NCBI GenBank assembly: GCA_040218735.1
Contig: JAVJQW010000023.1
Location: 288,001-352,000, forward strand
Origin: Deltaproteobacteria bacterium
GTDB taxonomy: Bacteria > Myxococcota > Kuafuiibacteriia > Kuafuiibacteriales > Kuafuiibacteriaceae
Length of the DNA: 64,000 nucleotides
Direction: 5' to 3'
In this document: positions 33,528-53,431 of the stretch, piece after piece
How the letters are laid out: each line of letters begins with the position of its first letter
Numbering within the stretch: position 1 is the stretch's first letter
Notes under the pieces: generated by a model
Databases searched by the model: none
What the model saw: the letters and a program-made list of their open reading frames with translations, nothing else
Told to the model about the DNA's origin: nothing
Translations under genes and position numbers: made by a program

Positions 33528-33545
33528 GCGCGGAGGCTAGCACCG

Positions 33546-35276: not shown

Positions 35277-35317
35277 TCGAGGAACAACACCCGCGCATCG
35301 ATGGTTCCGGCTGAGAA

Positions 35318-37278: not shown

Positions 37279-38054
37279 GCGCCCTGCCCTACGCCGGCGG
37301 TGCGGTGTTCGTGTTGATGCTCGCGCAGTGGATCGCGAGCCTCCCGCTGAAGGACGCGAGCATCGTCGATCGCTTCTGGGGCGCGGGGTTTGTGTTGGTC
37401 GCGGCGTGCACTGCGTACGTGACCGCACCGCCGACACCACGCGGGTGGATCGTGCTCGCGGTCGTCACGGTGTGGGGGCTGCGACTGTCGGCGTACCTGA
37501 CCTGGCGCAACTGGGGCGAGGGTGAGGACCGTCGCTACCAGAAGATGCGCGCGCACTGGGGCGCGCGTTTCGGCGTCGTGTCGCTGTTCACCGTGTTCCT
37601 GTTCCAGGGCGCGGTCATGCTGGTCATCGCGACGCCGGTGATGGTCGCGATCGCCGCGCGAGACACATCACTCGGCGCGCTCGACGTCGGCGCCGGGGTC
37701 ACGTTTTTGATAGGCTTCACCTTCGAGGCGGTCGGTGATCTCCAGCTCGCACGCTTCCTCGCCTCACCGAGCACCGACGGCCAGGTCATGGACCGCGGCC
37801 TGTGGCGCTACACCCGCCACCCGAACTACTTCGGCGACGCGCTCGCGTGGTGGGGCATCGCGACGTTGGCCTTCGCGACCGGCGCGTGGTGGACCGCCTT
37901 CGCGCCGGCGATCATGACGTTCCTGCTCCTGAAGGTCTCGGGCGTCGTGCTGCTGGAGAAGACGATCGTGAAGCGCCGCCCGGCGTACGAGGACTACGCG
38001 CGGCGAACGTCGGCGTTCATCCCTTGGCCGCCGCGCGAGACTCAGCCGCGATAG
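37275..38054 (+). CDS. DUF1295 family membrane protein
   Basis: SIVDRFWG, WGLRL, EDRRY, GLWRYTRHPNYFG, SGVVLLE. Confidence 0.9.
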   Translation: MSALPYAGGAVFVLMLAQWIASLPLKDASIVDRFWGAGFVLVAACTAYVTAPPTPRGWIVLAVVTVWGLRLSAYLTWRNWGEGEDRRYQKMRAHWGARFGVVSLFTVFLFQGAVMLVIATPVMVAIAARDTSLGALDVGAGVTFLIGFTFEAVGDLQLARFLASPSTDGQVMDRGLWRYTRHPNYFGDALAWWGIATLAFATGAWWTAFAPAIMTFLLLKVSGVVLLEKTIVKRRPAYEDYARRTSAFIPWPPRETQPR

Positions 38055-39385
38055 TGGTCGGGGTCGAGCCCTTCCTTGCGGAGCCACCGGTAGACCTGCG
38101 CGCGGTGTTTGCCGAGGAGCTTGGCGATCGTCGCGACGTTGCCCTGGTGCTCCTCGAGCAACGCGACCAGGCCGCTTCGGTCCAACGCGACCGGTTGCGC
38201 TTCGGCCTCGGGCTTGCGCTTGCGCGCGCTGGTGAGGTTCGCGGCGAATTCGGGCGGGAGGCTCGAAAGCTCGAGGACGCGCTGGTCGAACATCTGGATC
38301 TGCGCGGCGAGGTGCTGCACCTCGCGGACGTTCTGCGGCCAGTCGTGGAGGAGCATCGCCTCGGCCGCGTCGGCGGAGATCGCGTGCAGCGGCATCGACG
38401 CCATCTGGGTGAACAGCGGGAGGACCTCCTCGCGGCGATCCGCGAGGCCGGGGAGCCGCAGCACCATCCCCGAGAGTCGCGCGTACAGGTCGCGGCGGAA
38501 GGTGCCCTGCTCGACGAGCACGTCCAACGACTTGTGCGTCGCGGCGACGACGCGAACGTCGACGGCCGTCTCCACGTCCGAGCCGACCGGGCGCACCGTC
38601 TTCTCCTGTAGGGTCCGGAGCAGCGACGGCTGCTGGTCGAGGGGGAGGTCCGCGATCTCGTCGAGGAAGAGTGTGCCGCGATCGGCGGCGACGAAGAGCC
38701 CGGAGCGATCACCGGAGGCTCCCGAGAAGGCGCCGGCCGCGTGGCCGAAGAGCTCACTCGCGATCAGCTCGCGGTTGAGCGCGCCGCAGTTCACGGCGAC
38801 GAGCCGACCGGGGCGACCGCTCGCTTCGTGAATCTGCTTCGCGAGGCGCTCCTTACCGGCGCCGGTCGGACCGAGGAGGAGCAGCGACAGCGGCGCGCGT
38901 GCCGCGAGCGTCGCGCGCGCTTCGACGACCTCGCGCAGCACACTCGCGGTCGGCGACAACCGAGGCCGCGGGAGCCCCTCGGGGAGGTCGGCCTCCGAGA
39001 ACACAAACGTCGAGTCGGCGATGCGAATGACGCTCCCGTGTTCGAGCTCCGCCTTGGCGGCGCGGGTGCCGTCGACGAACGTGCCGTTTCGGCTCCCGAG
39101 ATCTTCGACCGTGAAGACGTCCCGATCCTCGTCGTGAACGATCCGCGCGTGACGGCGACTCGACCCGGGGTCGCAGATCTCGATGCCGCCCGCGCCCGGG
39201 TCGCGTCCGATGACCACCGTGCCGTCGAGCTCCCAGACGCGCTCGGTCTGATCCGGATCCTCGACGTGATGCGCGAGCGTGAGCACTCGAACGCGCGGCG
39301 GATCGATCGCGTCGAGGCGATCGAGAAGGTCGACGTGGTCCGCGGTCTCGTCGTATCGGGAACGTGCCATCGGCGTAGGCGTCAC
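38042..39385 (-). CDS. FHA-domain sigma54-dependent enhancer-binding protein (Fis-type HTH)
   Basis: FHA (IGR, SRRHA, DLGSRNGT); AAA+ (GPTGAGKE, SELFGH, GAFSGA, LFLDEI, FRRDLY, WPQNVRE); C-terminal HTH. Confidence 0.93.
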   Translation of the reverse strand: MTPTPMARSRYDETADHVDLLDRLDAIDPPRVRVLTLAHHVEDPDQTERVWELDGTVVIGRDPGAGGIEICDPGSSRRHARIVHDEDRDVFTVEDLGSRNGTFVDGTRAAKAELEHGSVIRIADSTFVFSEADLPEGLPRPRLSPTASVLREVVEARATLAARAPLSLLLLGPTGAGKERLAKQIHEASGRPGRLVAVNCGALNRELIASELFGHAAGAFSGASGDRSGLFVAADRGTLFLDEIADLPLDQQPSLLRTLQEKTVRPVGSDVETAVDVRVVAATHKSLDVLVEQGTFRRDLYARLSGMVLRLPGLADRREEVLPLFTQMASMPLHAISADAAEAMLLHDWPQNVREVQHLAAQIQMFDQRVLELSSLPPEFAANLTSARKRKPEAEAQPVALDRSGLVALLEEHQGNVATIAKLLGKHRAQVYRWLRKEGLDPDHYRG

Positions 39386-40629
39386 TTGCCGCGTTGTGCG
39401 CCGCCCGTCGAGGGGGGGGCCTCGAGCGTGGCCGTGAGCGAGATGTCGTCGAGCTCGTCCGCGGTCTCCTCGAAGTCACCGACCACCGTATCGGCGGCCG
39501 CGATTCCCGCCGGAATGGCCGGGCCACGGTCCGTCGCGGCGATCGATCCGTCGTCCAACAGCTGCGGGAGCTCGGTCGTGGAAGGGACCTCGGCGTCCGG
39601 CGTGTTCATGCCCTGCACCACGGTTTCCACCGGGCCCGATACACTCGCAGTCGGGCCGGCGTCGTCGAAGGGGCCCGTCTCCATCTCGTCGGACGGGTTC
39701 CAGGCCGGCATCAGCTCCGGAGCGTCGAGCATGGCGGCGCGGAACGCACCGCGGAAGGTCGTGATGTCCTCGAAGCGCTCCTCGGGGCTCGTCGACATGC
39801 CGCGGACGAGCACCTCGTCGACCGAAGCGGGCACGTCGTCGCGCACGGCGGACGCGCGCGGTCGTTCACCGCGGAGGATTCGCTTCATGATGTCGAGCTG
39901 CGAGTTGGCGTCGCCGATCGACGCGTGGGCCACGAGCGGCTCGCCGTATACGTCCGTCGCCCAGGCGCGGCGGAGCGTGATGAGCTCGTAGAGGATCACC
40001 GCGAGCGCAAACTGATCCGTGCGGCCGTCGACGGGGCGCTGCCGCATCTGCTCCGGCGTCATGTAGGCGATCGATCCGATCACCCGACCAATGGTGGTCG
40101 GGTCGAAGCGCTCGTTGTCGAGGGACTTCGCGGCCCCGAAGTCGAGCACCTTCACGAAAGGCGGCTTGCGGGGGGCGTTGACCATGATGTTCGCCGGCTT
40201 GAGATCCCGGTGAACGACGGCGTGCTCGTGGGCGCAGGCGAGCGCGTCGCAGATGCGATCGCAGAGCCACGCGATTCCGATGAGTGGGATGGCGTGGCGC
40301 TTCGCCGAGCGCCGCTGCATGCGCGCTTGCAACGTCTCCCCCTCCACGTACTCGAGCGTGAAGAACCGCGGCGCGGACGTCGTTCGGTCGAGGTAAGCGC
40401 GCGCGATCGACTGATGCTCGAGGCTCGAGAGCAGCTCGGCCTCCTGACGAAAACGCTCCACGGCGCCCACCGTGGCTTCGTGTCCCGCGTGGAGGATCTT
40501 CACCGCGACGGCCGCGTCGGTCGTGAGCTCTGTTGCGCGCCAGACCGAAGAAAAGCCGCCCGACCCGAGCCGCCTCTCCAGCCGAATCCGGCCGTCGAGG
40601 ACGGCGCCTTCGGCCAAGTGCTCCGCCAT
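39382..40629 (-). CDS. cytoplasmic Hanks-type Ser/Thr protein kinase
   Basis: LGSGGFSSV, VAVK, HRDLKPANI, DFG, YMTPEQ; acidic Thr-rich tail; no TM. Confidence 0.93.
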   Translation of the reverse strand: MAEHLAEGAVLDGRIRLERRLGSGGFSSVWRATELTTDAAVAVKILHAGHEATVGAVERFRQEAELLSSLEHQSIARAYLDRTTSAPRFFTLEYVEGETLQARMQRRSAKRHAIPLIGIAWLCDRICDALACAHEHAVVHRDLKPANIMVNAPRKPPFVKVLDFGAAKSLDNERFDPTTIGRVIGSIAYMTPEQMRQRPVDGRTDQFALAVILYELITLRRAWATDVYGEPLVAHASIGDANSQLDIMKRILRGERPRASAVRDDVPASVDEVLVRGMSTSPEERFEDITTFRGAFRAAMLDAPELMPAWNPSDEMETGPFDDAGPTASVSGPVETVVQGMNTPDAEVPSTTELPQLLDDGSIAATDRGPAIPAGIAAADTVVGDFEETADELDDISLTATLEAPPSTGGAQRGK

Positions 40630-40658
40630 CGCGGATCAGCGTAGCACACGCCTCGCAC

Positions 40659-42605
40659 CTACGAAGTCCTCCGAGCGTCCGTCACGAACGCCGTGAGCTC
40701 GAAGTCCGCGGCCGACACGATGCGCGGCGTGCCGTCCTCGCGGATAGCGACGGCGACCGGTGTCACGTGTTCATCGGTGTCGCGTACGTCGACATGCGCG
40801 CGCAACACATCGAGCGTCGCATCGACGATCGCATCGAGCGTATCTCCGCTCGGGCGATTCGCGCGTGACTTGAGGTCGAGCAACACGTCGACCTCCTGCA
40901 CCGGCCGCCCCGCGCGCTCGATCGTGTTGGCGAGGCGGGTGAGCGCGCTCGTGAGACCGTCGCGATTCGCGGGGCGCGCCGTCACCAACGCGAGCGCCTC
41001 CGGGCCGACCGGTACGTCGAACAAATACGCCGTCCCCAACGTGGCGACCGGCTCGCGGCGGCCCTCGGCGTGCAGGACGATCGGTGCGCCTCGCGCCGCA
41101 AGGGTGCGCAGTCGTTGCAACGTGTCGGGCACCTCGGCGTGCACGGGTGCATCGAACACCTTGGAGACGACCGCTTCCTCCGACGTCGCTTGGAGCAAGC
41201 CACCTTGCACGCCGTCGGCGACCAGTGAAGCGTGCAGCGCCGCAGCGTAGGGGTCGACCGAAGCCTGAACGAACGGGTCGGCCGACTCGAGACGATCGAC
41301 GAGGCCGACGCCCTCCTGCGGGTGCGCGACCTTCGCGAAGACTTCGAGCTGTTCGAGCGAGAGGCGCACGCCGAGGGACGTGTCCGCGTGTGGCCCGCGC
41401 GGGTCCTCGCCGTGCCGCACGCCATTCACGACGTAGCCCTCGAACCTCGGATCGACGTCGCGCCGCCGCGCGAGCGCGAAGACGGCCGCCGCGAAGCTCG
41501 CGTCGCCGGCGAGCACCACCCGCGGCGGGATCGGGCGGCGGCCGAGCATGTCCAACCGCTCCGCGCGCGCCTCGATGCCTCGCCACAGCTCCGCGCCGAG
41601 GACACGCATCCGCGTGAAGTGGACGGCGGCGTCGCGGACCTCTTCGCGTCGCGGCCCGGCGATCTGCGCCGCGTCGTCGTCGCCGAGCACCTGGCCCTGC
41701 GCGTTGGCGACGAGGAACCTCAGCTGCGCGGGCGACAGGTCGGCGACCGCGTCTCGCGCCTTCACGTCGCCGACGGCGTCGAGGCGCTGCCACACCCGGA
41801 CGAACCGCCGCGCATCGACACGTCCGGCGTGACCGTGCGCGGCGATCGCGGGGGTGGCGAAGTCGGCGAAGAGGAGCTTGAGGTCCGCGAACGAGAGATC
41901 CGGCGCGATCTCGGCGACGCTCGCGAGGAACGCGTGCGCGTCGGCGAGCGCGCCGCTCAACCGCGCGAGCTCCGCTTCGTCGCCGGACTCGATCGCACGT
42001 GTCATCTGCTCGCGGACCTCGTCGAACGTTCGACCGGCGAGCGCACCCGGGATCCTCTTCGCTCCGAGATCGAACCGCAGGTGAACCGGCCCGTACGGCC
42101 GCTCGACGTCCACCGGCGCGGCGCGCCCCGAAGCCGCGAGCAGCGCCGCCGCGGCGCGCCGATCCGATCGTGCACCGAGCGCGGAGAGCCGGAGCCGACC
42201 GTTCAGCACCATCCGCACCAGGCCCCCGTCGGCGACGAGGTCCAGGCCTCCGCTCGCGAAGCCTCGCCCGAGCGCGGCCGCATCGAAGATCCCCTCGGCG
42301 ACGGGGCGTCCGCCCCCGTTTGTCAGCACCGGCGCGCCGTCGACGAAGACAAACTGCTCGGGCTCACCGCGCTCGTCCGACTGTGAGCCCCCCTGCCCGC
42401 CGTCCCGGTCGATCGACGGGAGCCAGGGCTGGTCGACGCGCCCCTCCTCGATCTGCTCGCGCTCGATCTGCTCACGCTCGATGATCTCGATCTGGCGCGG
42501 CTCGATCGGCTGCGTGACGTGGGCGTGGGCGAGCTCGTCGACGAGCTCGTGGGGCTCCGCGTGGGCGGGAACACGAACGGCGGTCTGCGGTCGGACTTCT
42601 CGCAT
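40659..42605 (-). CDS. hypothetical protein, candidate T3SS-associated substrate
   Basis: 648-aa ORF without a Sec signal; divergent from sctV; sigma54 promoter directly upstream. Confidence 0.6.
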   Translation of the reverse strand: MREVRPQTAVRVPAHAEPHELVDELAHAHVTQPIEPRQIEIIEREQIEREQIEEGRVDQPWLPSIDRDGGQGGSQSDERGEPEQFVFVDGAPVLTNGGGRPVAEGIFDAAALGRGFASGGLDLVADGGLVRMVLNGRLRLSALGARSDRRAAAALLAASGRAAPVDVERPYGPVHLRFDLGAKRIPGALAGRTFDEVREQMTRAIESGDEAELARLSGALADAHAFLASVAEIAPDLSFADLKLLFADFATPAIAAHGHAGRVDARRFVRVWQRLDAVGDVKARDAVADLSPAQLRFLVANAQGQVLGDDDAAQIAGPRREEVRDAAVHFTRMRVLGAELWRGIEARAERLDMLGRRPIPPRVVLAGDASFAAAVFALARRRDVDPRFEGYVVNGVRHGEDPRGPHADTSLGVRLSLEQLEVFAKVAHPQEGVGLVDRLESADPFVQASVDPYAAALHASLVADGVQGGLLQATSEEAVVSKVFDAPVHAEVPDTLQRLRTLAARGAPIVLHAEGRREPVATLGTAYLFDVPVGPEALALVTARPANRDGLTSALTRLANTIERAGRPVQEVDVLLDLKSRANRPSGDTLDAIVDATLDVLRAHVDVRDTDEHVTPVAVAIREDGTPRIVSAADFELTAFVTDARRTS

Positions 42606-42621
42606 GGCGCGCCGTCGGTTC

Positions 42622-42636
42622 GCACGACACGTGCCA
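42622..42636 (-). promoter_or_regulatory. sigma54 -24/-12 promoter (TGGCACGTGTCGTGC)
   Basis: GG-N10-GC with TGGCACG, 16 nt upstream of the 648-aa ORF start. Confidence 0.7.
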
Positions 42637-42669
42637 GGACCCGCCCCTCGATTCCGCGTCCGTCACGGG

Positions 42670-42703
42670 CGAAACCGTCACGGAACACCGCGGAACCGTT
42701 CCG
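42670..42703. promoter_or_regulatory. putative enhancer-binding-protein sites (CGAAACCGTCACG; CGGAACCGTTCCG)
   Basis: One perfect and one degenerate palindrome centred between two divergent sigma54 promoters (33 and 34 nt away). Confidence 0.6.
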
Positions 42704-42737
42704 CGGCGCACAGGGACGACCGCCATCCGGGTCGGTG

Positions 42738-42752
42738 TGGCCCGCGACTTGC
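42738..42752 (+). promoter_or_regulatory. sigma54 -24/-12 promoter (TGGCCCGCGACTTGC)
   Basis: TGGC-N7-TTGC immediately upstream of sctV. Confidence 0.7.
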
Positions 42753-42766
42753 CAAGGGCGAGGGCC

Positions 42767-44899
42767 ATGCTCGCGTACCTTCGTCAGGCCCGCATCGGAA
42801 GGCCCGGGGACGTCGCCGTCGCCGGCTTCATGCTCCTCGCGCTGTCGGTGATGCTCGTCCCGCTCCCCGCGGCCGCGCTCGACGTGCTCATCGCGATCAA
42901 CCTGATCGCCGCGCTGACGTTGCTCCTCCTCGCGATCCACATCCCCACGCCGTCGCGCCTCGCGTCGTTCCCCTCGATCCTCCTCCTCACGACGCTGCTC
43001 CGCCTGTCGCTGAACGTCGCGTCCACGCGGCTGATCCTCGCGAGTGGACAAGGGAGCGCGATCGTCACCGCGTTCGCCACGCTGGTGACCGGCGGCGACC
43101 TCTTCGTCGGGCTGATCCTCTTCGTCATCGTCACGGTCGTGCAGTTCATGGTCATCGCGAAGGGCTCGGAGCGCGTCGCCGAAGTCGCCGCGCGTTTCAC
43201 GCTCGACGCGATGCCGGGCAAGCAGATGTCGATCGACGCCGACCTCCGCAGCGGCAACATCGAGTTCGACGAAGGCGCCCGCCGCCGCGAAGGCCTACAG
43301 GTCGAGTCGCAGCTCTACGGCGCGATGGACGGCGCGATGAAGTTCGTGAAGGGCGACGCCGTCGCGGGGCTGATCATCACGGCGATCAACCTGGTGGGCG
43401 GCATCATCATCGGCGTCAGCCGCCTCGACATGTCCGCGGCCGAAGCCGGTAGCACGTTCGCCGCGCTCACCGTCGGCGACGGTCTCGTCTCGCAGATCCC
43501 CGCGATGCTGATCTCCGTCGCGGCCGGCTTCATGACCACCGCGGTCAACGAAGGTGAGCAGAACCTCGGCGCGCGCCTCGAGCAGCAGCTCCGCGCCTTC
43601 CCGCGCGCCCCGGCGGTGGCCGGCGCGTTCCTCGTCGTGCTCGCGTTCGTGCCCGGGATGCCCGGGTGGGTGCTCGCGACCGTGGGCATCGCGACGGTCG
43701 CGGGCGCCGTGCACCTCATCCGCCGCGAGACCCTGAAGGCGTTCGACGACGAGGACGAAGCGCCCGCCGAGCCGGAGGTCACCAAGGCCGAAGTGAAGAT
43801 CGCGCGGATGCAGCGCGCGACGGCGGACCGGATGCTCCCGATGGTCACGCCCGTCCTCATCGAGTTCTCGAAGAACCTCGAAGGGCTCCTCGGCGACCCC
43901 CGCGGGCGCTTCGTCCGCGATCTGATCCCAGAGATGCGGAACGGGCTCTTCTTCGAGCTCGGGATGCGCTTTCCGAACGTCCGCATGCGCGTGAACCCGT
44001 GGCTCGAGGAGTCGGACTGCTACGTCGTCTACATCAACGAGATCCCCGGCCCGGTGCGCAAGCTCCGGCGCGATCGCATCCTCGTGAACGAGTCGCCGAA
44101 CCGCCTCCGTGCGTTCAACGTCCGCGGCGAACCCGTCGAGAACCCCGCGACCGGCACGACGTGCGCGTGGGTCGAGCCGAAGTACCGCGCCGTGCTGGAG
44201 CGTGCGTGTTTCGAGTGCTGGAGCGGTGAAGAGTTCGTGATCCTCGACCTCGCGGAGCAGATGCGTCGCAACGCGTCGCGGTTCCTGAGCGTGCACGACG
44301 TGAAGGAGATGTTGAATCACCTCCAGTCCGCGTTCCCGGCGCTCGTCGACGAGATCGTCCCGCGCCTGATCTCCGTCCCGCAGCTCACCGACGTGCTGAG
44401 GCGGCTGGTGAGCGAGAGCATCTCCATCCGCGACCAGAAGTCGATCCTGCAGTCCATCGCCGAGTGGGCGCCGGTCTTGTCGCGCCCCGAGGACCTCGTC
44501 GCCGCCGTACGACGGGACCTACGCGACTACATCACTTACAAGTACGCCGGCGTCGGCGAGAGCCTCGCCGCTTACGTCCTCGATCCCCTCATCGAAGACA
44601 CCGTCCGCGGCGGCATCCTCGAGGGACCGGAGGGCCGCGTGCTCGCCCTCGACCCGGACCTCGTGAACGTCATCGTCCGCGCCGTGCGCAACGCCGTCGA
44701 GGGGACGCGCCACCGCGACCAGCTCGGGCCGGTGTTCCTGACGAGCTCTTCGGTGCGCCCGTTCATTCGCCGGCTGCTGGAGTTCGAGTGTCCGCGCCTG
44801 CGTGTCGTCTCCTACGACGAGCTGCGCCCCAACGTGGTCGTCGAACCGCTCGGACGCGTGAGCATCGACGACGAGATGGGTGAGGTGGTGGCGGCATGA
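42767..44899 (+). CDS. sctV: type III secretion export gate SctV (LcrD/FlhA, FHIPEP family)
   Basis: FPSILLLTTLLRLSLNVASTRLIL; KGSERVAEVAARFTLDAMPGKQMSIDADL; LYGAMDGAMKFVKGD; GDGLVSQIPA; LVSESISIRD; VVSYDEL. Confidence 0.92.
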   Translation: MLAYLRQARIGRPGDVAVAGFMLLALSVMLVPLPAAALDVLIAINLIAALTLLLLAIHIPTPSRLASFPSILLLTTLLRLSLNVASTRLILASGQGSAIVTAFATLVTGGDLFVGLILFVIVTVVQFMVIAKGSERVAEVAARFTLDAMPGKQMSIDADLRSGNIEFDEGARRREGLQVESQLYGAMDGAMKFVKGDAVAGLIITAINLVGGIIIGVSRLDMSAAEAGSTFAALTVGDGLVSQIPAMLISVAAGFMTTAVNEGEQNLGARLEQQLRAFPRAPAVAGAFLVVLAFVPGMPGWVLATVGIATVAGAVHLIRRETLKAFDDEDEAPAEPEVTKAEVKIARMQRATADRMLPMVTPVLIEFSKNLEGLLGDPRGRFVRDLIPEMRNGLFFELGMRFPNVRMRVNPWLEESDCYVVYINEIPGPVRKLRRDRILVNESPNRLRAFNVRGEPVENPATGTTCAWVEPKYRAVLERACFECWSGEEFVILDLAEQMRRNASRFLSVHDVKEMLNHLQSAFPALVDEIVPRLISVPQLTDVLRRLVSESISIRDQKSILQSIAEWAPVLSRPEDLVAAVRRDLRDYITYKYAGVGESLAAYVLDPLIEDTVRGGILEGPEGRVLALDPDLVNVIVRAVRNAVEGTRHRDQLGPVFLTSSSVRPFIRRLLEFECPRLRVVSYDELRPNVVVEPLGRVSIDDEMGEVVAA

Positions 44900-45267: not shown

Positions 45268-45268
45268 G

Positions 45269-45727
45269 TTGCGTCGCCGAAACCCATCCCCGCGATCCCG
45301 CCCCTCACCCGCAGCCCGTCCGCGTCCCGTGACGCCCCCCCGCGACGATACCGTGCCCCCCTCGGTGCGACGTGTCTGTGAAGCTCAGCTCCGGGCGATC
45401 GAGCGCATCGGCTACGACTACTACCAGTCGGACCGCTTCGACCGCGCACGCACCGTGTTCGAGGGGCTTCACGCCCTGGCGGCGCGCCGCGTCTATCCGC
45501 TCCGTGGGCTCGCGGAGACCTGCCTCGCGCTCGGCGACGGCCCCGCCGCCCTCCGCGCCGCGAACGGTGTCGTCGCGCTCGCGTCCGACGACGGCGGCGC
45601 GTACTGCCTCCGCGGGCGGGTACTCCTCGCTGCGAACCGCTCCGGCGACGCCAAGAACGATCTGATTCGCGCAGCGCGCCTCGGCGACGACCTCGCAGAG
45701 GCGCTGCTCCTCACCCTCCCCCGCTGA
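45269..45727 (+). CDS. small TPR protein, T3SS chaperone (SctY/SycD-like)
   Basis: IGYDYYQSDRFDRARTVFEGL..GLAETCL..AYCLRGRVLL TPR pattern; start uncertain. Confidence 0.7.
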   Translation: MRRRNPSPRSRPSPAARPRPVTPPRDDTVPPSVRRVCEAQLRAIERIGYDYYQSDRFDRARTVFEGLHALAARRVYPLRGLAETCLALGDGPAALRAANGVVALASDDGGAYCLRGRVLLAANRSGDAKNDLIRAARLGDDLAEALLLTLPR

Positions 45728-45814
45728 GTTGCGGAACGGACGCGAAACAGTTTCGCCCGCGAACCCACCGAAACGCCGCAACACACGACCGCATCGCCTG
45801 GCACGGAAAGTGAT
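45728..45814 (+). promoter_or_regulatory. enhancer palindrome (GTTGCGGAAC-N5-CGAAACAGTTTCG) plus sigma54-like promoter (TGGCACGGAAAGTGAT)
   Basis: Same layout as 51204-51289; the -12 element is GA instead of GC. Confidence 0.6.
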
Positions 45815-45826
45815 TTACCGAAAGTC

Positions 45827-46726
45827 ATGCAGCGCGATGAGTTCTCGATCGAACAGCTCGGCATCGGCGCTCCGACGCATGGGTTCCGCTGGATGACCTT
45901 CCCCCTCTACCAGCGCCACCTCGCGGGCCTTGGAATGCCCGGCGAGCGTGTCTCGGTGATCGCGATCGGCGCGCGCGTCGGCGTGCAGCCGATCGGTCTG
46001 CTCGTCGCCGAGCGACCCGCGACGGGGCCGGCGCGGCTCGTCTCCGTCGCCGTCCGCCCGGGGCACCGCCAGCGCGGCTGCGCGCGCAGCATGTTCTTGG
46101 AGCTCGAGTCGGTCCTTGGCTCCCAGGACGTGCCCCAGCTCGTCGCGGGCGGCGCCGACGCGGTGCTCACGACCGAGATCCGCGCGCTGCTCGGACGCGT
46201 CGGTTTTGGGCCCCTCACCCCCGCCGGGCAGTGCATCGAGCTCGAGAGCGAACGGCTCGGACCCCTCGTCACGCGGCGCGAGCGTTGGCTCCCAAGCGGT
46301 TACTCGGCGGTCCCCTGGACCTCGCTGACCGCTCAACGGCGCGGTGCGCTCCGCGCGACGCTCACTTACCCGGAGTCGCTCTCACCGTTCCGCCACGAAG
46401 CACAGATCGAACCCACGACGAGCCTCGCGCTCCTCGCGAACGACCAAGTCGTCGGCTGGGCGATCGGCCACCGCATCAACGCCGACATCGTGCACTACGC
46501 GACGATCTTCGTCCGCGAGGACCTCCAGAACCTCGGCCTCGGCGCGGGGCTCTTCTTCACCGCGCTCGCGCGGCACTGCACGAGCCCCAAGACCCGTCGC
46601 GCGCGGGGGCGCTTCCTGGTGCGCGACGAGAGCGCCCGAATGCGGCGCCTCCTCGAGCGCCGCATTCACCCGTACGCCTCGCGGCGCGCGGCCTACTTCG
46701 AAGCTGCGAAAGACCTCACCGTCTGA
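45827..46726 (+). CDS. tandem-GNAT acetyltransferase
   Basis: Two acetyl-CoA loops: VAVRPGHRQRGCA and IFVREDLQNLGLG. Confidence 0.8.
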   Translation: MQRDEFSIEQLGIGAPTHGFRWMTFPLYQRHLAGLGMPGERVSVIAIGARVGVQPIGLLVAERPATGPARLVSVAVRPGHRQRGCARSMFLELESVLGSQDVPQLVAGGADAVLTTEIRALLGRVGFGPLTPAGQCIELESERLGPLVTRRERWLPSGYSAVPWTSLTAQRRGALRATLTYPESLSPFRHEAQIEPTTSLALLANDQVVGWAIGHRINADIVHYATIFVREDLQNLGLGAGLFFTALARHCTSPKTRRARGRFLVRDESARMRRLLERRIHPYASRRAAYFEAAKDLTV

Positions 46727-46776
46727 CGCTCCCGTCCACCTCGAAACCCATGCCTTCGGCAGAAAGAGAGTAACCC

Positions 46777-47397
46777 ATGTCCAACCCGCGCAACGTCAAC
46801 AGCAACCCCCAGGTCCGGGCGCAGAACCTCAACTGGCGTCCCAACCAGATGCACGACGGTGGGTACTCCACCGTCGACTGGGCGACGCTTCCCGCCTCGA
46901 CGCCCGCGATCAACGACCGCGTCCTGCTCTACCTCATCCTCAAAGCGATGAAGGACGGCGCGCTCGACGATCTGCGCTCCCTGGAGAAGACCATCTCGGA
47001 GAACAACCAGAAGAAGGCCGTGCTGCGCGACATCCGCAAGGCGGTCAGCAACGGCGTGTCCACGGACAAGGACGGCAAACACAAGTTCGAGAAGGGGAAG
47101 GTCGGGACCATCCAGTACCAAAACCCCGACACCGGCAAGACCGAGACGCTCGACTACGCCGGCATGCAGTCGCTGTACAAGCAACTCACGGGCGAGAGCC
47201 TCGACGGAACCAACGCGCAGGTCCTGACCAACATCGACAACGACATCTCCACGCTCGGTGACTTCGGACAGGAGCTCGCGACGAAGATGCAGCTGTACAA
47301 CCAGCGATTCACGGAGGCGAGCGATCTGCTCACCGGCATCCTCAACTCATGGCACGGCGCCATCAAGAAGATCATCGGCAACATCGGGCAGGCCTAG
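46777..47397 (+). CDS. putative T3SS tip/filament protein (EspA/SseB/Bsp22-like)
   Basis: Helical 206-aa protein; C-terminus ISTLGDFGQELATKMQLYNQRFTEASDLLTGILNSWHGAIKKIIGNI resembles tip/filament protein termini. Confidence 0.6.
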   Translation: MSNPRNVNSNPQVRAQNLNWRPNQMHDGGYSTVDWATLPASTPAINDRVLLYLILKAMKDGALDDLRSLEKTISENNQKKAVLRDIRKAVSNGVSTDKDGKHKFEKGKVGTIQYQNPDTGKTETLDYAGMQSLYKQLTGESLDGTNAQVLTNIDNDISTLGDFGQELATKMQLYNQRFTEASDLLTGILNSWHGAIKKIIGNIGQA

Positions 47398-47399
47398 TC

Positions 47400-48134
47400 A
47401 TGAATGGTTCTCAACCGATCCAACGTTCGCCGCGCCTGGCGCCGGTGCTCCCGACGGAGCGGTTCGGTGCGTCGCGCATCGACGACGCAGCGCCGGGCGC
47501 GACCGGTCCGCAGGGCGCGAGTCACGACGTGCGCCTCCCGCGCGCGAGTCACACGGGCTCGGACCCCGCCGAGACGCTCGCGGCGGTCGACGCGGAGTAC
47601 GGCGCGCTGATGCGCAGCGCACGCGCCGCCGCCGGCAGCCTCGACGGTGACACGGTCGACATCCACCGGATCCTGATGACGGTCGCGCGCGAGACGCGAC
47701 TCGACCAGCAGGGGAGCCTGGAGCAAGCGCAGTCGACGATCGACACCAACCGCCGGCTGCGGGACCAGATCTACGAGCGCGTCCAGGAGATCCAGGAGGA
47801 GCTGCAGAAGCTCCAAGAGGAGATCGCGGACCTGAAGGCGGAGATCGACGGGCACAACTTCTTCGAGAAGGCGGGTGAAGGCATCTCCTCCGCGTTCGGC
47901 GGTGGGAAGGGCAAGGACCTTCAGAAGAAGCAGGCGTCGATGACCATCAAACAGGGCAAGCTCAAGGAGGCCGAAGCCCGCCTCGAAGACGCCAAGAAAC
48001 TCATCGAGCACGGGCACGATCTCATGGAGTCGAGCATCAACGATCTCAAGAAGATCGTGGAGCGCATCAACGCCTCGATCCAGCTCGTTAAAGACGCCGT
48101 CAACAAGGAAACGAACGCCGTCGGGCGTTCCTGA
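47400..48134 (+). CDS. coiled-coil putative T3SS substrate / translocon component
   Basis: Disordered N-terminus, long heptad repeats around a short FFEKAGEGISSAFGGG segment. Confidence 0.6.
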   Translation: MNGSQPIQRSPRLAPVLPTERFGASRIDDAAPGATGPQGASHDVRLPRASHTGSDPAETLAAVDAEYGALMRSARAAAGSLDGDTVDIHRILMTVARETRLDQQGSLEQAQSTIDTNRRLRDQIYERVQEIQEELQKLQEEIADLKAEIDGHNFFEKAGEGISSAFGGGKGKDLQKKQASMTIKQGKLKEAEARLEDAKKLIEHGHDLMESSINDLKKIVERINASIQLVKDAVNKETNAVGRS

Positions 48135-48145
48135 GGAGGTTCGAT

Positions 48146-48928
48146 ATGACCGTTCAGTCCCTCGACCACAAACCCATCTCCGTGCGCGCGCCGGAGGACG
48201 CCCTCGCAAACGACGACGCGCGCGTCGGGAGTGAGCCGGAGCTCTCGCTCGGGCCCGTCCATCCGATCGCGTCGGCGCGTACGTCGTCGGCGGAGGAGCT
48301 CACGGCGCTGATGCGTCAGGTGCAGAGCTTCGCGACACAGGCGCTGAGCGACCCGAACAGCGTCTTCGAGAACGCCGGAGAGATCATCAACGTGATCGAG
48401 AAACTCATGGTGCTGCTCGCCAAGGAGGAGCGGAAGGCTCGGCACGACCGCTTCTCCGCGAAGATGACGAAGCTGGTCCAGCGCATCGAAAAGATGCTCG
48501 CGGCGGCTCAGAAGACGCTGGAGGCCGGACAGAAGGAGCTCGACGCGATCTCCAAGAAGTCCGGGTGGCAGATCGCGTTCGCGGTGCTCGCGGTGATCAT
48601 CATCGCCGTCGCGATTGCGGCGGCGGTCGCGACCGGGGGGGCCGCCGCGTTGATGGTCGGCGCCGCGCTCGCCGCGGTGATGCCGGTGCTCGGCACGGCG
48701 GCCGGTGAGCTGCACGCGCGCGGCGACACGAAGGACAAGCAGGCGCTGAACGAGGAGTCGGCGGATCTCAACGCGATGGCGAGTGAGCTCGAGAAGCTCA
48801 TGGAGAACGAGTCCGAGCTGTCCGCCGAAGCAAAAGAGCTCCTGCGGAAGCTGCTCGAGATCCTCATGAAGATCTTCGAGAAGCTCAACGCCTCGCGGCG
48901 CAAGGCCACGGACGGGATGACGTCATGA
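48146..48928 (+). CDS. putative hydrophobic T3SS translocator (SctE/SctB-like)
   Basis: GAGGAGG RBS; coiled coil + hydrophobic hairpin IAFAVLAVIIIAVAIAAAVATGGAAALMVGAALAAV + coiled coil; no Sec signal. Confidence 0.7.
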   Translation: MTVQSLDHKPISVRAPEDALANDDARVGSEPELSLGPVHPIASARTSSAEELTALMRQVQSFATQALSDPNSVFENAGEIINVIEKLMVLLAKEERKARHDRFSAKMTKLVQRIEKMLAAAQKTLEAGQKELDAISKKSGWQIAFAVLAVIIIAVAIAAAVATGGAAALMVGAALAAVMPVLGTAAGELHARGDTKDKQALNEESADLNAMASELEKLMENESELSAEAKELLRKLLEILMKIFEKLNASRRKATDGMTS

Positions 48929-50109
48929 CGGTCGCTTTGAACGTCCACCGGCCGTCCGTCGTCGCGCTCGGGCAGACCTCGGATCCCGTCGCATCGGATC
49001 GTGGCACCGAGTCGCTGGGGCCGGTGCGCCGGCTCGACGCGGATCGGAGCGTCAACCGGGACGTCTCGCTGCTCCTCGCCCTCGCGCTCGCCGAGAGCAC
49101 GCGCGAGCTGGCGAGGATGCGGCGAACCACGGCGCGTGCGTTCCTCGAGGGGCAGGTCGCGCTCCTCACCGGGATGATTCGGCTGGAGCCGAGCGTCGCG
49201 GCATTCCTCGAGGACACACGCTTCCTGGAGACGATGGCGATGTCGGCCGTGAGCCTGGCTTCGACGGGCGCGGGCGCGAAGAAGCCGTTGAAGTCAAAGC
49301 TCCCGAAGAAGGCGCAGGCGAAGATCGACGCGGCGACGAGGCCGTTCGAGCTTTCGCGACACCTGAAGACACTCGCGGCGAAGCCCGCGGTCGCGAAGCG
49401 GCTCGGGCGTTTCCACGCGGTCCGCGACGAGCTGGTCCGCCGCAACCCCCGCGCGCGACATCTCTTCGAGCGACTCGCAAGCCAGGTTGCGCCGAACCAG
49501 CGGCTCGACGTTCGGGACTGGACGATCGAGGGGGCGCCTCTCCGGGGCCAGGCAACCTCCGAGCAGATGGCGCGTGACGTCTTCGGCGACGCGCCGACGA
49601 AGCGTCAGATCCAGCTCGTCGAGGAGGCTGCTTCGATCCTCGCGCGGGGCGGCGATCCCATCTACGGCACGGCCGGGCGCATGACGAAACTCATGACGCG
49701 CGATGAGTTGGCCACGAAGCTCGAGACGCGACGCCCGTTCTGGGCGCGTGAATCGGACGCCGCGGACACCGCCAGGATCGTGGAGGCGATTCGCACCCGG
49801 AAGGTGGACCTGTCGCTGCCCTTGAAGGACGTCGACGGCACGCCGAAGAAGGTCGACCACGCGAAGGCGAAGGACCTCCTCGGTAACGCGGCGAGCCACC
49901 TCGAGAAGACGTGGCAGGACGGGTGGTCGAAGGAGGAGGCCGAGATGCCGGAGGGGCTCCACGGAGTCACCGAAGGTGAACGCGCCATCCTCGACGCTTG
50001 GTACGCCGAGCTCATGTCGGCACAGCTCGATCTCATTCGGTGGTCGGGACGTTTCGGAGATCTGCTCGCGGACGTCGCAGACATCGGGATGGGTATTTCG
50101 GACGAATGA
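48925..50109 (+). CDS. hypothetical protein in translocon operon
   Basis: 394 aa; ATGA-coupled to the translocator gene; helical. Confidence 0.6.
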   Translation: MTVALNVHRPSVVALGQTSDPVASDRGTESLGPVRRLDADRSVNRDVSLLLALALAESTRELARMRRTTARAFLEGQVALLTGMIRLEPSVAAFLEDTRFLETMAMSAVSLASTGAGAKKPLKSKLPKKAQAKIDAATRPFELSRHLKTLAAKPAVAKRLGRFHAVRDELVRRNPRARHLFERLASQVAPNQRLDVRDWTIEGAPLRGQATSEQMARDVFGDAPTKRQIQLVEEAASILARGGDPIYGTAGRMTKLMTRDELATKLETRRPFWARESDAADTARIVEAIRTRKVDLSLPLKDVDGTPKKVDHAKAKDLLGNAASHLEKTWQDGWSKEEAEMPEGLHGVTEGERAILDAWYAELMSAQLDLIRWSGRFGDLLADVADIGMGISDE

Positions 50110-50123
50110 AGGAGGCCTACGAA

Positions 50124-50609
50124 ATGGACGACATCGAAGAACGTGTCCTTGCCATCATGAACGCGGCGGCGGAAGGACTCATCAGCGTCCCTGAGCTGCT
50201 CGGGTTCACGGACGACGACGCCGAACGACTCTACGACAGCGCGCTCTCGCTCTACGAACGCGGCGCCACTTCGCAGGCGGAGCTCGTGTTGGAGTGGGTC
50301 GTGAACGCGAAGCCGTACACGGCGCGGTACTGGACGGCCTACGCCGCGACGCTGCAAGCGCGCGAGGCGTTCGTCCCGGCGATTCGCCTGTACACCGTGG
50401 CGCTGACGCTCGACCCCGACGACGTCATCGCGCTCGCCCACCGCGGTGAGTGCTGCCTGCTCGTGGGCCTCGTGGAACGCGGCCTCGACGATCTGGGACG
50501 GGCGTGCGCCCAGGCCCCCCGCTCGGACGAACGCCGCCACTGGGTCGAACACGCCCGCCGACTGCTGGCGCTCCACGAAGGCGTGCGTGCCCTGGCGCCC
50601 GTGGCCTGA
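50124..50609 (+). CDS. SycD/LcrH-family class II T3SS translocator chaperone
   Basis: ELLGFTDDDAERLYDSALSLYERG..AE..PYTARYW..AIRLY..LDPDD..HRGECCL; AGGAGG RBS (alternative start 50106). Confidence 0.82.
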   Translation: MDDIEERVLAIMNAAAEGLISVPELLGFTDDDAERLYDSALSLYERGATSQAELVLEWVVNAKPYTARYWTAYAATLQAREAFVPAIRLYTVALTLDPDDVIALAHRGECCLLVGLVERGLDDLGRACAQAPRSDERRHWVEHARRLLALHEGVRALAPVA

Positions 50610-50654
50610 TCCGAACCACCTCTCGAAACTCAGGAAGAATACTCAGGAGAACTC

Positions 50655-51203
50655 ATGCAGACCGTCACCCGTACCCCACGCTCGAACCGCAACCCCCTTA
50701 GGCTGCGCCGGGTCACCGTCCCCGAGCACACTGTCGTCGCCAAGGAGCTGGGGCGCCAAGACGAAGACCCGCTCGCGATCGATCCCCTGGAGCTGGAGCG
50801 CTTCATCACCCGCGTCATGAAACGCGTGGGACGTGACGCCGTGGATCTGAAACGACTTGGCTTCTACCTTCAGGTCGATCCGTTGGTGCTCCTCCTCAAC
50901 GGTCACACGGACGGTGTGCGCAGGACGGCTTGCGTTCCGGTCCGGGACGACACGACGAGCACCGACGCGGAGGACGTCCTGACCTTCCCGCCGGCGTACG
51001 CGCTCGAGGTGGCGCTCCCCGACGGCGTGGCGCTGAACGTCGCGCTCCCGTCGGCGTTGGACGCCGCCCGTCGGTGGGCGCTCGCCGACGACTCCCGGCG
51101 CCTCGGCGGGTTCGTTCGTCTGCACGTCGTGCCGGACCGCAAGGCGCCCGACGGTGCCCGCACCGCGCTGTGCATCGAGTGCCTCCCCGACGACGTGGAC
51201 TGA
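50655..51203 (+). CDS. hypothetical protein
   Basis: 182-aa ORF with AGGAG RBS; no recognised motif. Confidence 0.6.
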   Translation: MQTVTRTPRSNRNPLRLRRVTVPEHTVVAKELGRQDEDPLAIDPLELERFITRVMKRVGRDAVDLKRLGFYLQVDPLVLLLNGHTDGVRRTACVPVRDDTTSTDAEDVLTFPPAYALEVALPDGVALNVALPSALDAARRWALADDSRRLGGFVRLHVVPDRKAPDGARTALCIECLPDDVD

Positions 51204-51289
51204 GTTCCGCAACACCCCCGAAACGGTTTCGCGAATCACACCTCCGCGCGGTCATAAACCCACGACATCGACTTGGCACGCGCGGTGCT
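51204..51289 (+). promoter_or_regulatory. enhancer palindrome (GTTCCGCAAC-N5-CGAAACGGTTTCG) plus sigma54 promoter (TGGCACGCGCGGTGCT)
   Basis: GG-N10-GC match 42 nt after the palindrome; AAAGGA RBS and ATG follow. Confidence 0.72.
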
Positions 51290-51318
51290 CTCTTCAAGGA
51301 ACGAAAGGAACGACCACC

Positions 51319-52659
51319 ATGCCACCCACCCTGACCATGAAACCCAAGATGCCCGCCATGGATCCCAGCGCGAAGCTGATGGACGACGCCGGGCCCATCA
51401 CGAGCACGAAGTCCTCAGGTTCGTCGGTCGCCGTGGCCGGCGCCGGCGGCGATCCGCCGAAGCGCCCGAACGGTTCTGGCCTGCCGAATGGTCACTACCT
51501 CGACGTCGACCAGACCGGGCGCCTCCCGGTGAAACACCTCAACCTGAAGATGGCGAGCACGACGCCCCCTTCCCGCTTCATCGATCCCGCGACGAAGTCG
51601 GAGCGCTCCGACGCCACGCGGTACCTCGCGCTCCGGCAGAACAGCGCGGCGCGAAACCTGCTCTACAACCCGGGCCCCACGGTGCGGGAGGAGCTGTCGC
51701 TCGCCGCGGGGCGCCTCCACACGATCATGGGCCAGCTCGACGCGCAGGATCAGCGTACGCTCGGAACGCGGCTCCTCGGCGCCGAAGGGATGCTCGCCGG
51801 CCAGGGGCCCGACGCGATCCTCGCGACGCTGGATCGCGTGGCGCGTGAGTTCGACGGCGGCAACCCCACGGCCAACGATCGCGCGATCGTCCTCGCGTTG
51901 ATGGGTGACATCGGCGCGCTCTACGCCGACACCGGCGCGACCACCGGCGTGCAGGGGCGCACCGAGCTCGCCGCAGCGCGACTGCGCGACAACCTCGGCA
52001 ACATCGCCGAGGCATCAGGGCTGCAGGCCGTCCGCCGCGAGGACATCCAGCGTGTGCAGCGACTCGGCGGCTCGGGCGCCGTCGGGCCGACGAAGAAACA
52101 AGAGCGGCAGCGCCCCGAGAACGACAAACCTCCGCGCTCGGGCATTCACAACCTCGGCTTCCAGGCGGACGTCGACCTCGGGACCGACGGACCCACGGAG
52201 CTGACTCCGACGCGCTGGGACGTCGCGACGATCCGCAAGGACCGCGTCGATGAGTCAGCCGAGCCCCTGGTCGGACATATGTCGGGCTCTCCGGCGGAGA
52301 TCCTCCAGGTGTTCGACTTCCTCCGCGGCGTCGGCCGGGACGGTCAGTACACTCAGGTCATGGATCAGCAGCGGGCGCTCCCGATGTTGAACCCCATGCG
52401 GGCGCAACTCACCCCGGCGGCCAACGAGGCCCGACACGCACGCGCGGCGGCGGCGGGGGCGTTCCTCGTAGGCATGGGTTATCACAGCGCCGTCGAAGTC
52501 GCGGAGGGCATTCTGGCGTACACGGGCCAGGACGCCCGCGGCTCGCTCTCCAGCCCGCGGCGCGACGCGGTCGAGCTGCTCGGCCAGGGTGCCGCGACGG
52601 ACCTCCTCACCGACATGTTCGACGGCTACGCCATGCCGCGCGACGAGCCGGAGATGTAA
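51319..52659 (+). CDS. putative T3SS effector with S-HxxxE motif
   Basis: S/T/P-rich disordered N-terminus; PLVGHMSGS and GMGYHSAVEV motifs; shares regulatory motif with T3SS genes. Confidence 0.62.
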   Translation: MPPTLTMKPKMPAMDPSAKLMDDAGPITSTKSSGSSVAVAGAGGDPPKRPNGSGLPNGHYLDVDQTGRLPVKHLNLKMASTTPPSRFIDPATKSERSDATRYLALRQNSAARNLLYNPGPTVREELSLAAGRLHTIMGQLDAQDQRTLGTRLLGAEGMLAGQGPDAILATLDRVAREFDGGNPTANDRAIVLALMGDIGALYADTGATTGVQGRTELAAARLRDNLGNIAEASGLQAVRREDIQRVQRLGGSGAVGPTKKQERQRPENDKPPRSGIHNLGFQADVDLGTDGPTELTPTRWDVATIRKDRVDESAEPLVGHMSGSPAEILQVFDFLRGVGRDGQYTQVMDQQRALPMLNPMRAQLTPAANEARHARAAAAGAFLVGMGYHSAVEVAEGILAYTGQDARGSLSSPRRDAVELLGQGAATDLLTDMFDGYAMPRDEPEM

Positions 52660-52682
52660 CCCACCGGAGCGCAGGATCCGAG

Positions 52683-53285: not shown

Positions 53286-53431
53286 GCCGAATACGAGGAG
53301 CATGTTTCGGACCAACGACGACGCCGCGTCGTCACCGCTCGGCTCGCGCGACAGAAGGACGCGATCGTGACGGGATGACACGGACCGCGCAGGATTTGAC
53401 CCCCTGATTGGGATCGGCGAGGGTCCGCCGC

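Follow-up and report, generated by a model that had tools for sequence, protein, structure and literature searches.

The window analyzed here is a 64 kb stretch (C9:288001-352000) of a genome of 11.6 Mb, 70 contigs and 69% GC, and its positions 38042 to 52659 hold an island of genes, several of them resembling components of the type III secretion (T3SS) machinery, around an orphan gene for the export-gate protein SctV. On the minus strand, tightly packed genes for a 648-aa protein, a Hanks-type Ser/Thr kinase and a sigma54 activator with a forkhead-associated (FHA) domain diverge from the sctV operons. The plus strand carries, in order, sctV, a 123-aa open reading frame (ORF), a small tetratricopeptide repeat (TPR) protein gene (TPR-A), a GNAT-domain gene, ORFs of 206, 229, 260 and 394 aa, a second TPR gene (TPR-B) and ORFs of 182 and 446 aa. 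The ORFs named in a first-pass annotation of the sequence were all reproduced by a gene call based on GC content at third codon positions (GC3), and the island ORFs look coding, with GC3 values of 0.81-0.93 against the 69% GC background; the named genes are thus real. Three ORFs are additional to that list, the GNAT-domain ORF at 45827-46726, the 394-aa ORF at 48925-50109 and the 182-aa ORF at 50655-51203. The GC content of the island is that of its surroundings.

Judged by its sequence, the gene at 42767-44899 (plus strand) encodes an intact, divergent non-flagellar SctV. The product matches PF00771 (FHIPEP) with 662.8 bits (E 7.9e-199, cut-off 29.1) over positions 2-656 of the 657 in the profile, and the NCBIfam SctV model (TIGR01399, 664.2 bits) fits it better than the FlhA model (588.3 bits). 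The longest ORF begins at GTG 42737, but the start is probably ATG 42767, because a 99%-identical database protein is 710 aa long and a sigma54 site occupies 42738-42752. Seven hydrophobic 19-mers at residues 13-318, within the N-terminal 320 residues, indicate that the membrane domain is kept. In 100 other FHIPEPs, 91 columns reach an identity of at least 90%; the window SctV retains 85 of these, the core SctV discussed below 88 and the flagellar FlhA of the same genome 84. A quick LG+G4 tree was built from 59 of the 106 FHIPEPs collected (six from this genome, 20 from related genomes and 33 chosen from 80 public loci). In this tree, the window SctV falls inside a 46-row non-flagellar SctV clade, which is split from the 13-row flagellar clade with a Shimodaira-Hasegawa approximate likelihood-ratio (SH-aLRT) value of 100; it is 47% identical to the core SctV on contig C23 and 35% identical to the FlhA on contig C59. 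An identity as FlhA or another flagellar gene was rejected on the strength of this grouping, and the first-pass assignment as a non-flagellar sctV is upheld, the gene lying outside the flagellar clade and away from the genome's own FlhA. The myxobacteria-like host proposed at the same time agrees with the labels of the close SctV relatives, which are Myxococcota or Deltaproteobacteria. Orthologues occur in public protein sets at 78, 74 and 68% identity, after which identity drops to 47%. The 19 other genomes of the GTDB class, which consists of a single order and family, yielded none. A search of genome contigs with SctV was dominated by the universal FHIPEP motif; the best among the matches listed was 45% identical, which is uninformative on close orthologues.

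The remainder of the apparatus lies elsewhere. Whole-genome family searches gave no FliP, Bac_export_2, fliI_yscN, YscJ_FliF, T3SS_needle_F, Secretin or FliMN_C match in the window, and tblastn with the core Sct proteins also found none there, in line with the earlier statement that no sctR/S/T/U/N/J/C/Q/F is recognizable in the 64 kb. The accompanying description of the island as self-contained had to be abandoned: SctL/N/O/P/Q/R/S/T/U are not in the window, and the core is on C23. These nine non-flagellar components occur once in the genome, in a cluster at C23:287-325 kb that comprises FliH/SctL, SctN, a YscO-like protein, a FliK-type (Flg_hook) protein, SctQ, a FliO-like protein, SctR/S/T/U, two LcrH-like TPR genes and SctV. 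In the family searches, SctR, SctU and SctN (over cut-off) as well as SctQ were found only on C23 and C59, and tblastn with the nine core proteins gave copies on these two contigs only; weaker SctN matches at C59:167k, C70 and C64 were under the fliI_yscN cut-off. The C59 flagellar cluster, where gene calls at 380-410 kb follow a flagellar order, holds versions of six core genes (N, Q, R, S, T and U), its FHIPEP falls in the flagellar clade (SH-aLRT 100), and YscJ/FliF was found on C59 only. The C23 SctV sits in a tight core clade and shares 91% identity with its counterpart in the core of another genus of the family. The genome has two secretins, on C21 and at C59:261k, and none in the C23 core cluster. 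The first-pass annotation had named the lack of any T3SS core in the genome, combined with no structural similarity to translocators, as an outcome that would speak against its reading; a non-flagellar core is present on C23. Since that core exists, the option raised there of an alternative export gate and substrate set fits.

The two larger clusters have further features of their own. FliK-type (Flg_hook) ruler-like and FliO-like proteins are encoded in the secretin-less core at C23:295258-296139 and C23:304937-305521, and a length ruler is odd for a machine supposed to be needle-free. Between the core's two TPR genes sits the gene for a 407-aa protein (C23:320866-322089), the C-terminal 120 residues of which recur with 46-66% identity at C18:144656, C50:50721, C14:39509 and C39:239540, as if a common module were fused to different N-termini. 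A needle-like tail noted by eye in the 407-aa protein was dropped, as the family profile of the island's 206-aa protein does not detect it. The region C59:372000-410360 is a complete-looking flagellar cluster in a Myxococcota-type genome, with a FliF-size ring protein, rod and hook proteins, FliPQR/FlhBA, and FlhF/G-, FliA- and FlgH/I-size genes.

The two TPR proteins connect the island to this core. TPR-A (45329-45727, plus strand; longest ORF from 45269) is chaperone-like, and TPR-B (50157-50609, plus strand) is a candidate SycD/LcrH-like class II chaperone. The LcrH_SycD model (TIGR02552) gave 67.5 bits for TPR-B (E 9.4e-19) and 42.8 bits for TPR-A (E 3.9e-11), which places them 6th and 9th of the 89 matches in the genome; TPR-A also scored 42.8 bits with SctY, and TPR-B 36.7 bits with SicA. 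Six of the top eight matches (at least 66 bits) lie within ∼3 kb of an sctV on C23, C70, C41, C9 or C38, and C8:182533 and C41:259074, the remaining two, lie away from any known SctV locus. The core's own TPR genes sit between sctU and sctV. Within the genome, the best match of TPR-A is the first of these (C23_320004), with orthologous TPR genes at two loci of related genomes scoring slightly above it, and the best paralogue of TPR-B is the second (C23_322239). Given this correspondence, the cassette has the look of a more elaborate version of the gate-proximal module found in the core. A complex prediction of TPR-B with residues 1-100 of the 260-aa family scored 0.02, which is no answer and evidence neither way.

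The 206-aa protein (46777-47397, plus strand) is read as a distant axial protein of the needle, tip or filament type and not as a member of SctF, a reading that comes from profile comparisons at the level of its family. Its orthologues are 72%-81% identical, and the C-terminal 48 residues, a helix, are almost invariant. When a profile of 17 family C-termini was compared with 177,635 PDB sequences, 12 of the 22 matches at E ≤10 were needle or tip chains. The best were a PrgI-SipD fusion (3.7e-4), a 43-residue needle fragment (7y6c_F, 8.1e-4) and SipD (0.026), and MxiH and PrgI followed at E 0.26-0.73, alone not significant. Similarly, 7 of the 17 family members match PF09392 (needle) below its cut-off, with a best E of 1.3e-4, and the next families are matched by two members each. 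The only PF09392 match in the genome is the C-terminus of a paralogue of the 206-aa protein on C70 (21.7 bits, cut-off 29.4). An AlphaFold2 (AF2) model of the 206-aa protein, with a mean predicted local distance difference test score (pLDDT) of 67, shows helices at residues 45-91 and 148-205 forming a long hairpin with a small beta insert; IpaD, SipD and FlgL are among its non-significant Foldseek matches. A scan of metagenome contigs with the 206-aa protein yielded no relative, and the 172 genomes sampled from f9, the largest family of the phylum, gave no member of the needle-like family.

The 260-aa protein (48146-48928, plus strand) has two adjacent hydrophobic segments within residues 137-174 and is a candidate small translocator. 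Orthologues are 56%-67% identical. Five of them have in common, besides the hairpin, two conserved helices, one of them C-terminal, and an S-L-(A/G)-P-V motif in an N-terminus that otherwise varies. A profile of the five found six proteins among 1.84 billion and reached, at E 2.7e-5, the protein P0136, which is an SseC-family protein (67.3 bits); another of the six, P0137, scored 18.5 bits and is sub-threshold. An hhalign comparison of the 260-aa family gave 74% probability and E 2.8e-5 over 100 columns covering the hydrophobic part. The ESM Atlas neighbors of the protein include clusters annotated SseC/SseD (0.87-0.89), which are leads only, and the family profile met only chance-level matches among the PDB sequences (best E 0.45). 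"SseC-like" is therefore a best guess; the similarity is weak and transitive, and membership is not established. A translocation-competent module, possibly aimed at eukaryotic prey or predators, as proposed in the first-pass annotation, is conjecture. An (E)-S-L-G-P-V motif is common to the 260-aa (48236-48259) and 394-aa (49003-49020) proteins, ∼30 residues from the N-terminus, and in the 260-aa family L35 and P37 are invariant within an otherwise variable region. It may serve in chaperone binding or secretion.

The island is one of four paralogous cassettes in the genome, a point absent from the first-pass annotation. There are six full-length FHIPEP genes (one core on C23, one flagellar on C59 and four orphans) and one C-terminal fragment; for comparison, five complete genomes of f9 have two FHIPEP genes each, a count that does not come from the phylum-wide FHIPEP search, which scored two candidates per genome and so gives no copy numbers. 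The orphans on C38, C41 and C70 belong to an 18-row clade (SH-aLRT 100) whose members are all extra copies from this bacterial family. At all three, a small ORF and an LcrH-like TPR gene precede sctV, and Ser/Thr kinases are nearby. C38 and C70 also carry paralogues of the FHA-domain activator, 39%-44% identical to that of the window, and weak homologues of the 206-aa protein. In related genomes, needle-like genes of the 206-aa type lie 1.5-7 kb from extra SctVs (in G012, three times in G013 and twice in G002), and some cassettes have two or three such small proteins in tandem. At C70:149653-151201, three tandem genes (169, 138 and 147 aa) match the needle-like C-terminal profile with E 4e-26, 0.003 and 6e-6, and this cassette may, to judge from these matches, encode several axial subunits. 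The fragment, at C16:73173-74273, consists of the FHIPEP C-terminal domain alone (366 aa) and lacks a membrane part; flagellar FlhA is nearest to it in sequence (35% identity), and a Ser/Thr kinase gene adjoins it.

The regulatory genes are accompanied by matching sites in the DNA. The enhancer-binding protein (EBP) that activates sigma54 (38042-39385, minus strand; the start may instead be at 39286) has an FHA domain (58.6 bits), a Sigma54_activat domain (PF00158, 186.2 bits) with its GAFSGA loop, and a C-terminal helix-turn-helix (HTH_8, 19.4 bits, under the cut-off of 22). The kinase (39382-40629, minus strand) scored 127.8 bits with Pkinase (PF00069), contains HRDLKPAN and DFG motifs and lacks a hydrophobic segment, as in a soluble protein. 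Sigma54 -24/-12 sites with at most one mismatch were found in the 64 kb at three places only, all intergenic and in the correct orientation: TGGCAC-N5-GTGC at 42622-42636 (minus strand), 17 nt before the 648-aa ORF; TGGCCC-N5-TTGC at 42738-42752 (plus strand), 15 nt before ATG 42767 of sctV; and TGGCAC-N5-GTGC at 51274-51288 (plus strand), 31 nt before ATG 51319 of the 446-aa gene. A fourth, sigma54-like site with a poor -12 element is located at 45799-45813 (plus strand), before the GNAT gene. The window contains exactly three copies of the palindrome CGRAAC-N-GTTYCG, and every one of them lies 35-55 bp upstream of a sigma54 site. The copy at 42691-42703 (CGGAAC-C-GTTCCG), a candidate EBP site, lies between the two divergent sigma54 sites and forms the core of a 9+9 inverted repeat; those at 45743-45755 (CGAAAC-A-GTTTCG) and 51219-51231 (CGAAAC-G-GTTTCG) are 44 and 43 bp upstream of the 45799 and 51274 sites, respectively. 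The four predicted sigma54 sites with a common palindrome are new here. Because they precede the island operons, the island's own control circuit is visible in the DNA, which backs the kinase-FHA-sigma54 circuit of the first-pass annotation.

The same type of promoter is enriched around the other orphans. Sigma54 sites have a genome-wide density of 23/Mb, and the 102 kb scanned around the four orphans contain 11 of them against ∼2.3 expected; the 44 kb scanned at the C23 core had none. Those of the other cassettes are at C38:19457-19471 and 11322-11336, C41:148196-148210 and 149409-149423, and C70:146923, 149352 and 161169. At the same upstream distance, C38 (CGGCA-N5-TGCCG-like) and C41 (CGTCCGGACG-like) each have a different repeated motif of their own, which suggests that the orphan cassettes have orthogonal activators. 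A single rpoN gene is present in the genome (C9:168658). At 7 of the 11 sites, including two of the window (42636-42605 and 42752-42767) and others on C38, C41 and C70, the start codon follows the -12 element by 10-17 nt, and this short spacing suggests either that the transcripts have very short leaders or none, or that the start codons have been set too far upstream.

DNA nearly identical to the island occurs in sponge, aquaculture and biofloc metagenomes. Contigs of four sequencing runs from three studies cover positions 38000-52700 and come from strains that are ∼99% identical. In one of these runs, two contigs of 51.9 and 25.2 kb span the island and show 41 differences over 5,315 bases and 116 over 9,369. 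Every one of the six indel variants listed for the contigs of the four runs falls in the 760 intergenic bases among 14,618. For the 206-aa and 260-aa proteins, two pairs of orthologues have matching longest listed contigs (565,245 and 26,504 nt), which suggests that they are co-located. The run with the full share, a mixed-culture metagenome, may be the source. Metagenome contigs that join distant positions of the island have sides of only 20-34 letters and were judged to be noise from assembly or from other organisms.

The specificity of T3SSs is usually seen as one locus, one machine and one substrate set, and the cytoplasmic ring of SctV is the docking site that orders substrates. Here, the island is best regarded as an accessory T3SS cassette, a gate with matched substrates for the single core on C23, and not as a complete system; a probability of roughly 55% is attached to this reading. 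What the data show are the identities of the genes, the inventory across the genome, the layout of promoters and palindromes, the paralogous cassettes and conservation. From the sequence, we infer gate swapping, signaling from kinase to FHA domain, binding of the palindrome by the EBP, secretion of the ORF products and a target cell. The soluble Ser/Thr kinase would produce a phospho-threonine signal that is read by the FHA domain of the neighboring sigma54 activator. The activator would then bind the cassette-specific palindrome CGRAAC-N-GTTYCG and fire the four sigma54 promoters as one regulon, namely those of its own operon, of sctV, of the needle/translocator operon and of the 446-aa gene. 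The products would use the only non-flagellar core of the genome (SctL/N/O/P/Q/R/S/T/U on C23), where a ring of the paralogous SctV could replace, or mix with, the core SctV and thereby select the cassette's own chaperone-substrate complexes. Several of the orphan proteins of the island are likely substrates.

A number of findings count against such a cassette. The SctV falls just below the equivalog cut-off of TIGR01399 (664.2 against 692.25 bits) and is a lone long branch (0.92) with no resolved position among the other members of the non-flagellar clade. Both TPR proteins are under the TIGR02552 cut-off of 104.8 bits, and the 89 matches to this model in the genome include generic TPR proteins. 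The 206-aa protein itself has no PF09392 match, its link being at the level of the family profile (best E 3.7e-4), and Foldseek of its model against the PDB returned nothing at E ≤0.001, the best match being a flagellin core at 0.11. For the 260-aa protein, there is no PF04888 (SseC) match at E ≤0.01 (cut-off 30.2 bits), the AF2 model from a five-sequence alignment is unusable (pLDDT 40), and the link to SseC passes through hydrophobic, low-complexity sequence at an hhalign probability of only 74%. The sigma54-like site at 45799 is weak, with two mismatches, and since two of the three palindrome sites served to derive the pattern, only the third, at 45743, confirms it independently. SctJ, SctC and SctF were undetected by Pfam in the C23 core cluster, and a route across the envelope is therefore not evident. 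No orthologous island was found among the other 19 genomes of the class. Finally, a limited literature search that did not cover supplements found no precedent for orphan sctV cassettes or gate swapping.

Other explanations must accommodate the same genes. That the cassette plugs into the C59 flagellar export apparatus is very improbable. A complete-looking flagellar cluster is present and flagellar T3SSs export non-flagellar proteins in some bacteria, but the window SctV groups with non-flagellar proteins, is closer to the C23 SctV (47% identity) than to the C59 FlhA (35%), and is accompanied by TPR genes that are paralogues of those on C23. Somewhat less improbable, though of slender credence, is an orphan SctV that acts as a membrane docking or signaling platform tied to Ser/Thr kinases, for instance by sequestering chaperone-substrate complexes or sensing the proton-motive force. 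Kinase genes immediately adjoin the FHIPEP genes on C38 and C16, are ∼2-10 kb away on C41 and C70 and are two genes away from the window sctV, and the C16 FHIPEP is a 366-aa C-terminal domain with no membrane part; the window SctV, however, has kept its full membrane domain and near-universal FHIPEP positions, and secretion is the only known use of the needle-like and translocator-like genes and class II-like chaperones beside it. Only a little more credit goes to the possibility that the island is the remnant of a horizontally acquired complete T3SS, its core genes lost and nothing now secreted. The absence of core genes from the window, the long, lone branch of SctV and the lack of an orthologue in the 19 other genomes of the class would be expected of a remnant. 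Decay is not evident in the genes: all ORFs are intact with coding-type GC3, SctV retains 85 of 91 universal positions, orthologues in other assemblies are 68%-81% identical, and indels in the four runs are intergenic only. In addition, the promoter and palindrome layout is coherent, the GC content is the same as in the surroundings, and three further loci, as well as related genomes, show the same core-less design.

A role in bacterial predation, as for the T3SS* of Myxococcus xanthus, is unlikely but deserves more weight than a remnant. The hairpin and orphan ORFs would then be prey-directed lytic or membrane-damaging cargo instead of a translocon of the eukaryote type, and the needle-like protein a short periplasmic or inner-rod-like conduit; gate swapping could still hold. 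The translocator assignment of the 260-aa protein is weak, as this explanation would have it, and the C23 core has no secretin (the only two are on C21 and at C59:261k), matching the secretin-less M. xanthus cluster described in an excerpt of PMC12075869. What speaks for injection instead is the combination of needle/tip-like and SseC-like signals with SycD-like chaperones, a hallmark of contact-dependent systems. Moreover, two FHIPEP genes per genome were counted in five complete f9 genomes, and the 172 f9 genomes sampled gave no member of the needle-like family, which indicates that this lineage differs from the M. xanthus type.

Among the closest known systems is the Ysc region of Yersinia, which reads yscX-yscY-yscV(lcrD)-lcrR-lcrG-lcrV-lcrH-yopB-yopD. 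As there, the gate of the island is accompanied by a small protein and a TPR chaperone-like protein (SctY-like, 42.8 bits), a tip-like protein, a candidate SycD/LcrH-type chaperone and hydrophobic translocator candidates. In contrast to Ysc, the island has no other sct gene nearby, sctV comes first in the order and, apart from the SctV Pfam domain, its T3SS-like proteins are under curated family cut-offs. The axial protein is 206 aa long with an inserted domain, and the hairpin protein has 260 aa; YopB has roughly 400. Control also differs, Ysc having an AraC-type activator and the island sigma54, an FHA-EBP and a Ser/Thr kinase. The elements of that control have parallels in the sigma54/EBP regulation of hrp T3SS genes by HrpR/HrpS in Pseudomonas syringae, in the FHA-domain EBPs of M. 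xanthus and in the PpkA-Fha1 threonine-phosphorylation switch of type VI secretion: an AAA+ activator with sigma54 acts on secretion genes, or a Hanks kinase is coupled to an FHA reader. What differs here is that the EBP itself carries the FHA domain, that its gene and that of the kinase would be transcribed together with the gene for a 648-aa protein without a known family, and that the activator appears to act directly on structural and substrate operons via a cassette-specific palindrome.

Within the phylum, the island can be compared with the needleless T3SS of M. xanthus (mxan_2434-2464) and with the long and short "Myxo" loci of Abby and Rocha (2012). According to excerpts of PMC12075869 and PMC3459982, these share with the C23 core the phylum and a secretin-less, non-flagellar constitution, and the Myxococcales systems are at the base of the non-flagellar T3SS tree (PMC3459982). 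The M. xanthus system is described in the excerpt of PMC12075869 as having no secretin, needle or translocon, yet being required for prey lysis; the present genome, in contrast, has needle/tip-like and SseC-like genes and class II-like chaperones beside extra SctVs. In an excerpt of PMC11509652, "multi-copies" of sctV and sctR in Myxococcia and Polyangia are mentioned in passing. T3SS genes divided among several chromosomal loci are also known from the Chlamydiales (PMC3459982). There, one core set is dispersed, whereas here sctV is multiplied and each copy has its own set of substrates, chaperones and regulators.

The accessory-cassette reading can be extended, tentatively and with appreciably less confidence, to the genome as a whole. 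One secretin-less core would be shared by up to five interchangeable gates, each orphan sctV belonging to a plug-in cassette that supplies a needle/tip-like subunit, a pore-former, chaperones and cargo of its own, together with an orthogonal kinase/FHA/sigma54 switch and palindrome. If this were true, the cell would rebuild the specificity of a single machine on demand, and at least this class of Myxococcota would not be "needleless." Multiplication of the gate only, with private switches, makes it testable whether a gate alone can re-program a secretion machine. If confirmed, the presence in a sister class of distant needle/tip-like and SseC-like genes would alter the picture of injectisome origin, and the sponge, aquaculture and biofloc metagenomes offer a place to look for the target organism.

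The flanks of the island have no obvious link to secretion. On the 38042 side (32049-38054) are DUF4056, acyltransferase and DUF1295/ICMT-like membrane methyltransferase genes, and on the 52659 side (53408-56199) an ORF of 567 aa with no assigned function and a family-2 glycosyltransferase gene. Within the island, the 648-aa ORF (40659-42605, minus strand; GC3 0.87), the first gene of the regulatory operon, belongs to no known family, with no Pfam or NCBIfam match and no paralogue in the genome by tblastn. The 123-aa ORF (44896-45267, plus strand), also of no known family, overlaps the sctV stop, and its position parallels that of the small ORF beside the TPR gene at other SctV loci. Pfam searches of these small ORFs gave no YscX or other family; the label "SctX-like" was dropped, as it had been a positional analogy only. 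The GNAT-domain protein (plus strand) is 299 aa long and carries its acetyltransferase domain at the C-terminus (Acetyltransf_1, 37.3 bits), with weak RimI and Eis matches. The 229-aa coiled-coil protein (47445-48134, plus strand; longest ORF from 47349) gave coiled-coil noise only in Pfam and has no hydrophobic segment. No known family was assigned to the 394-aa protein (plus strand) or to the 446-aa protein (51319-52659, plus strand), for which the Pfam search was empty and the best ESM Atlas neighbor reached only 0.77; with a sigma54 site of its own, the latter is a candidate secreted substrate. The 182-aa ORF (plus strand), likewise of no known family, is preceded by an AGGAG ribosome-binding site.

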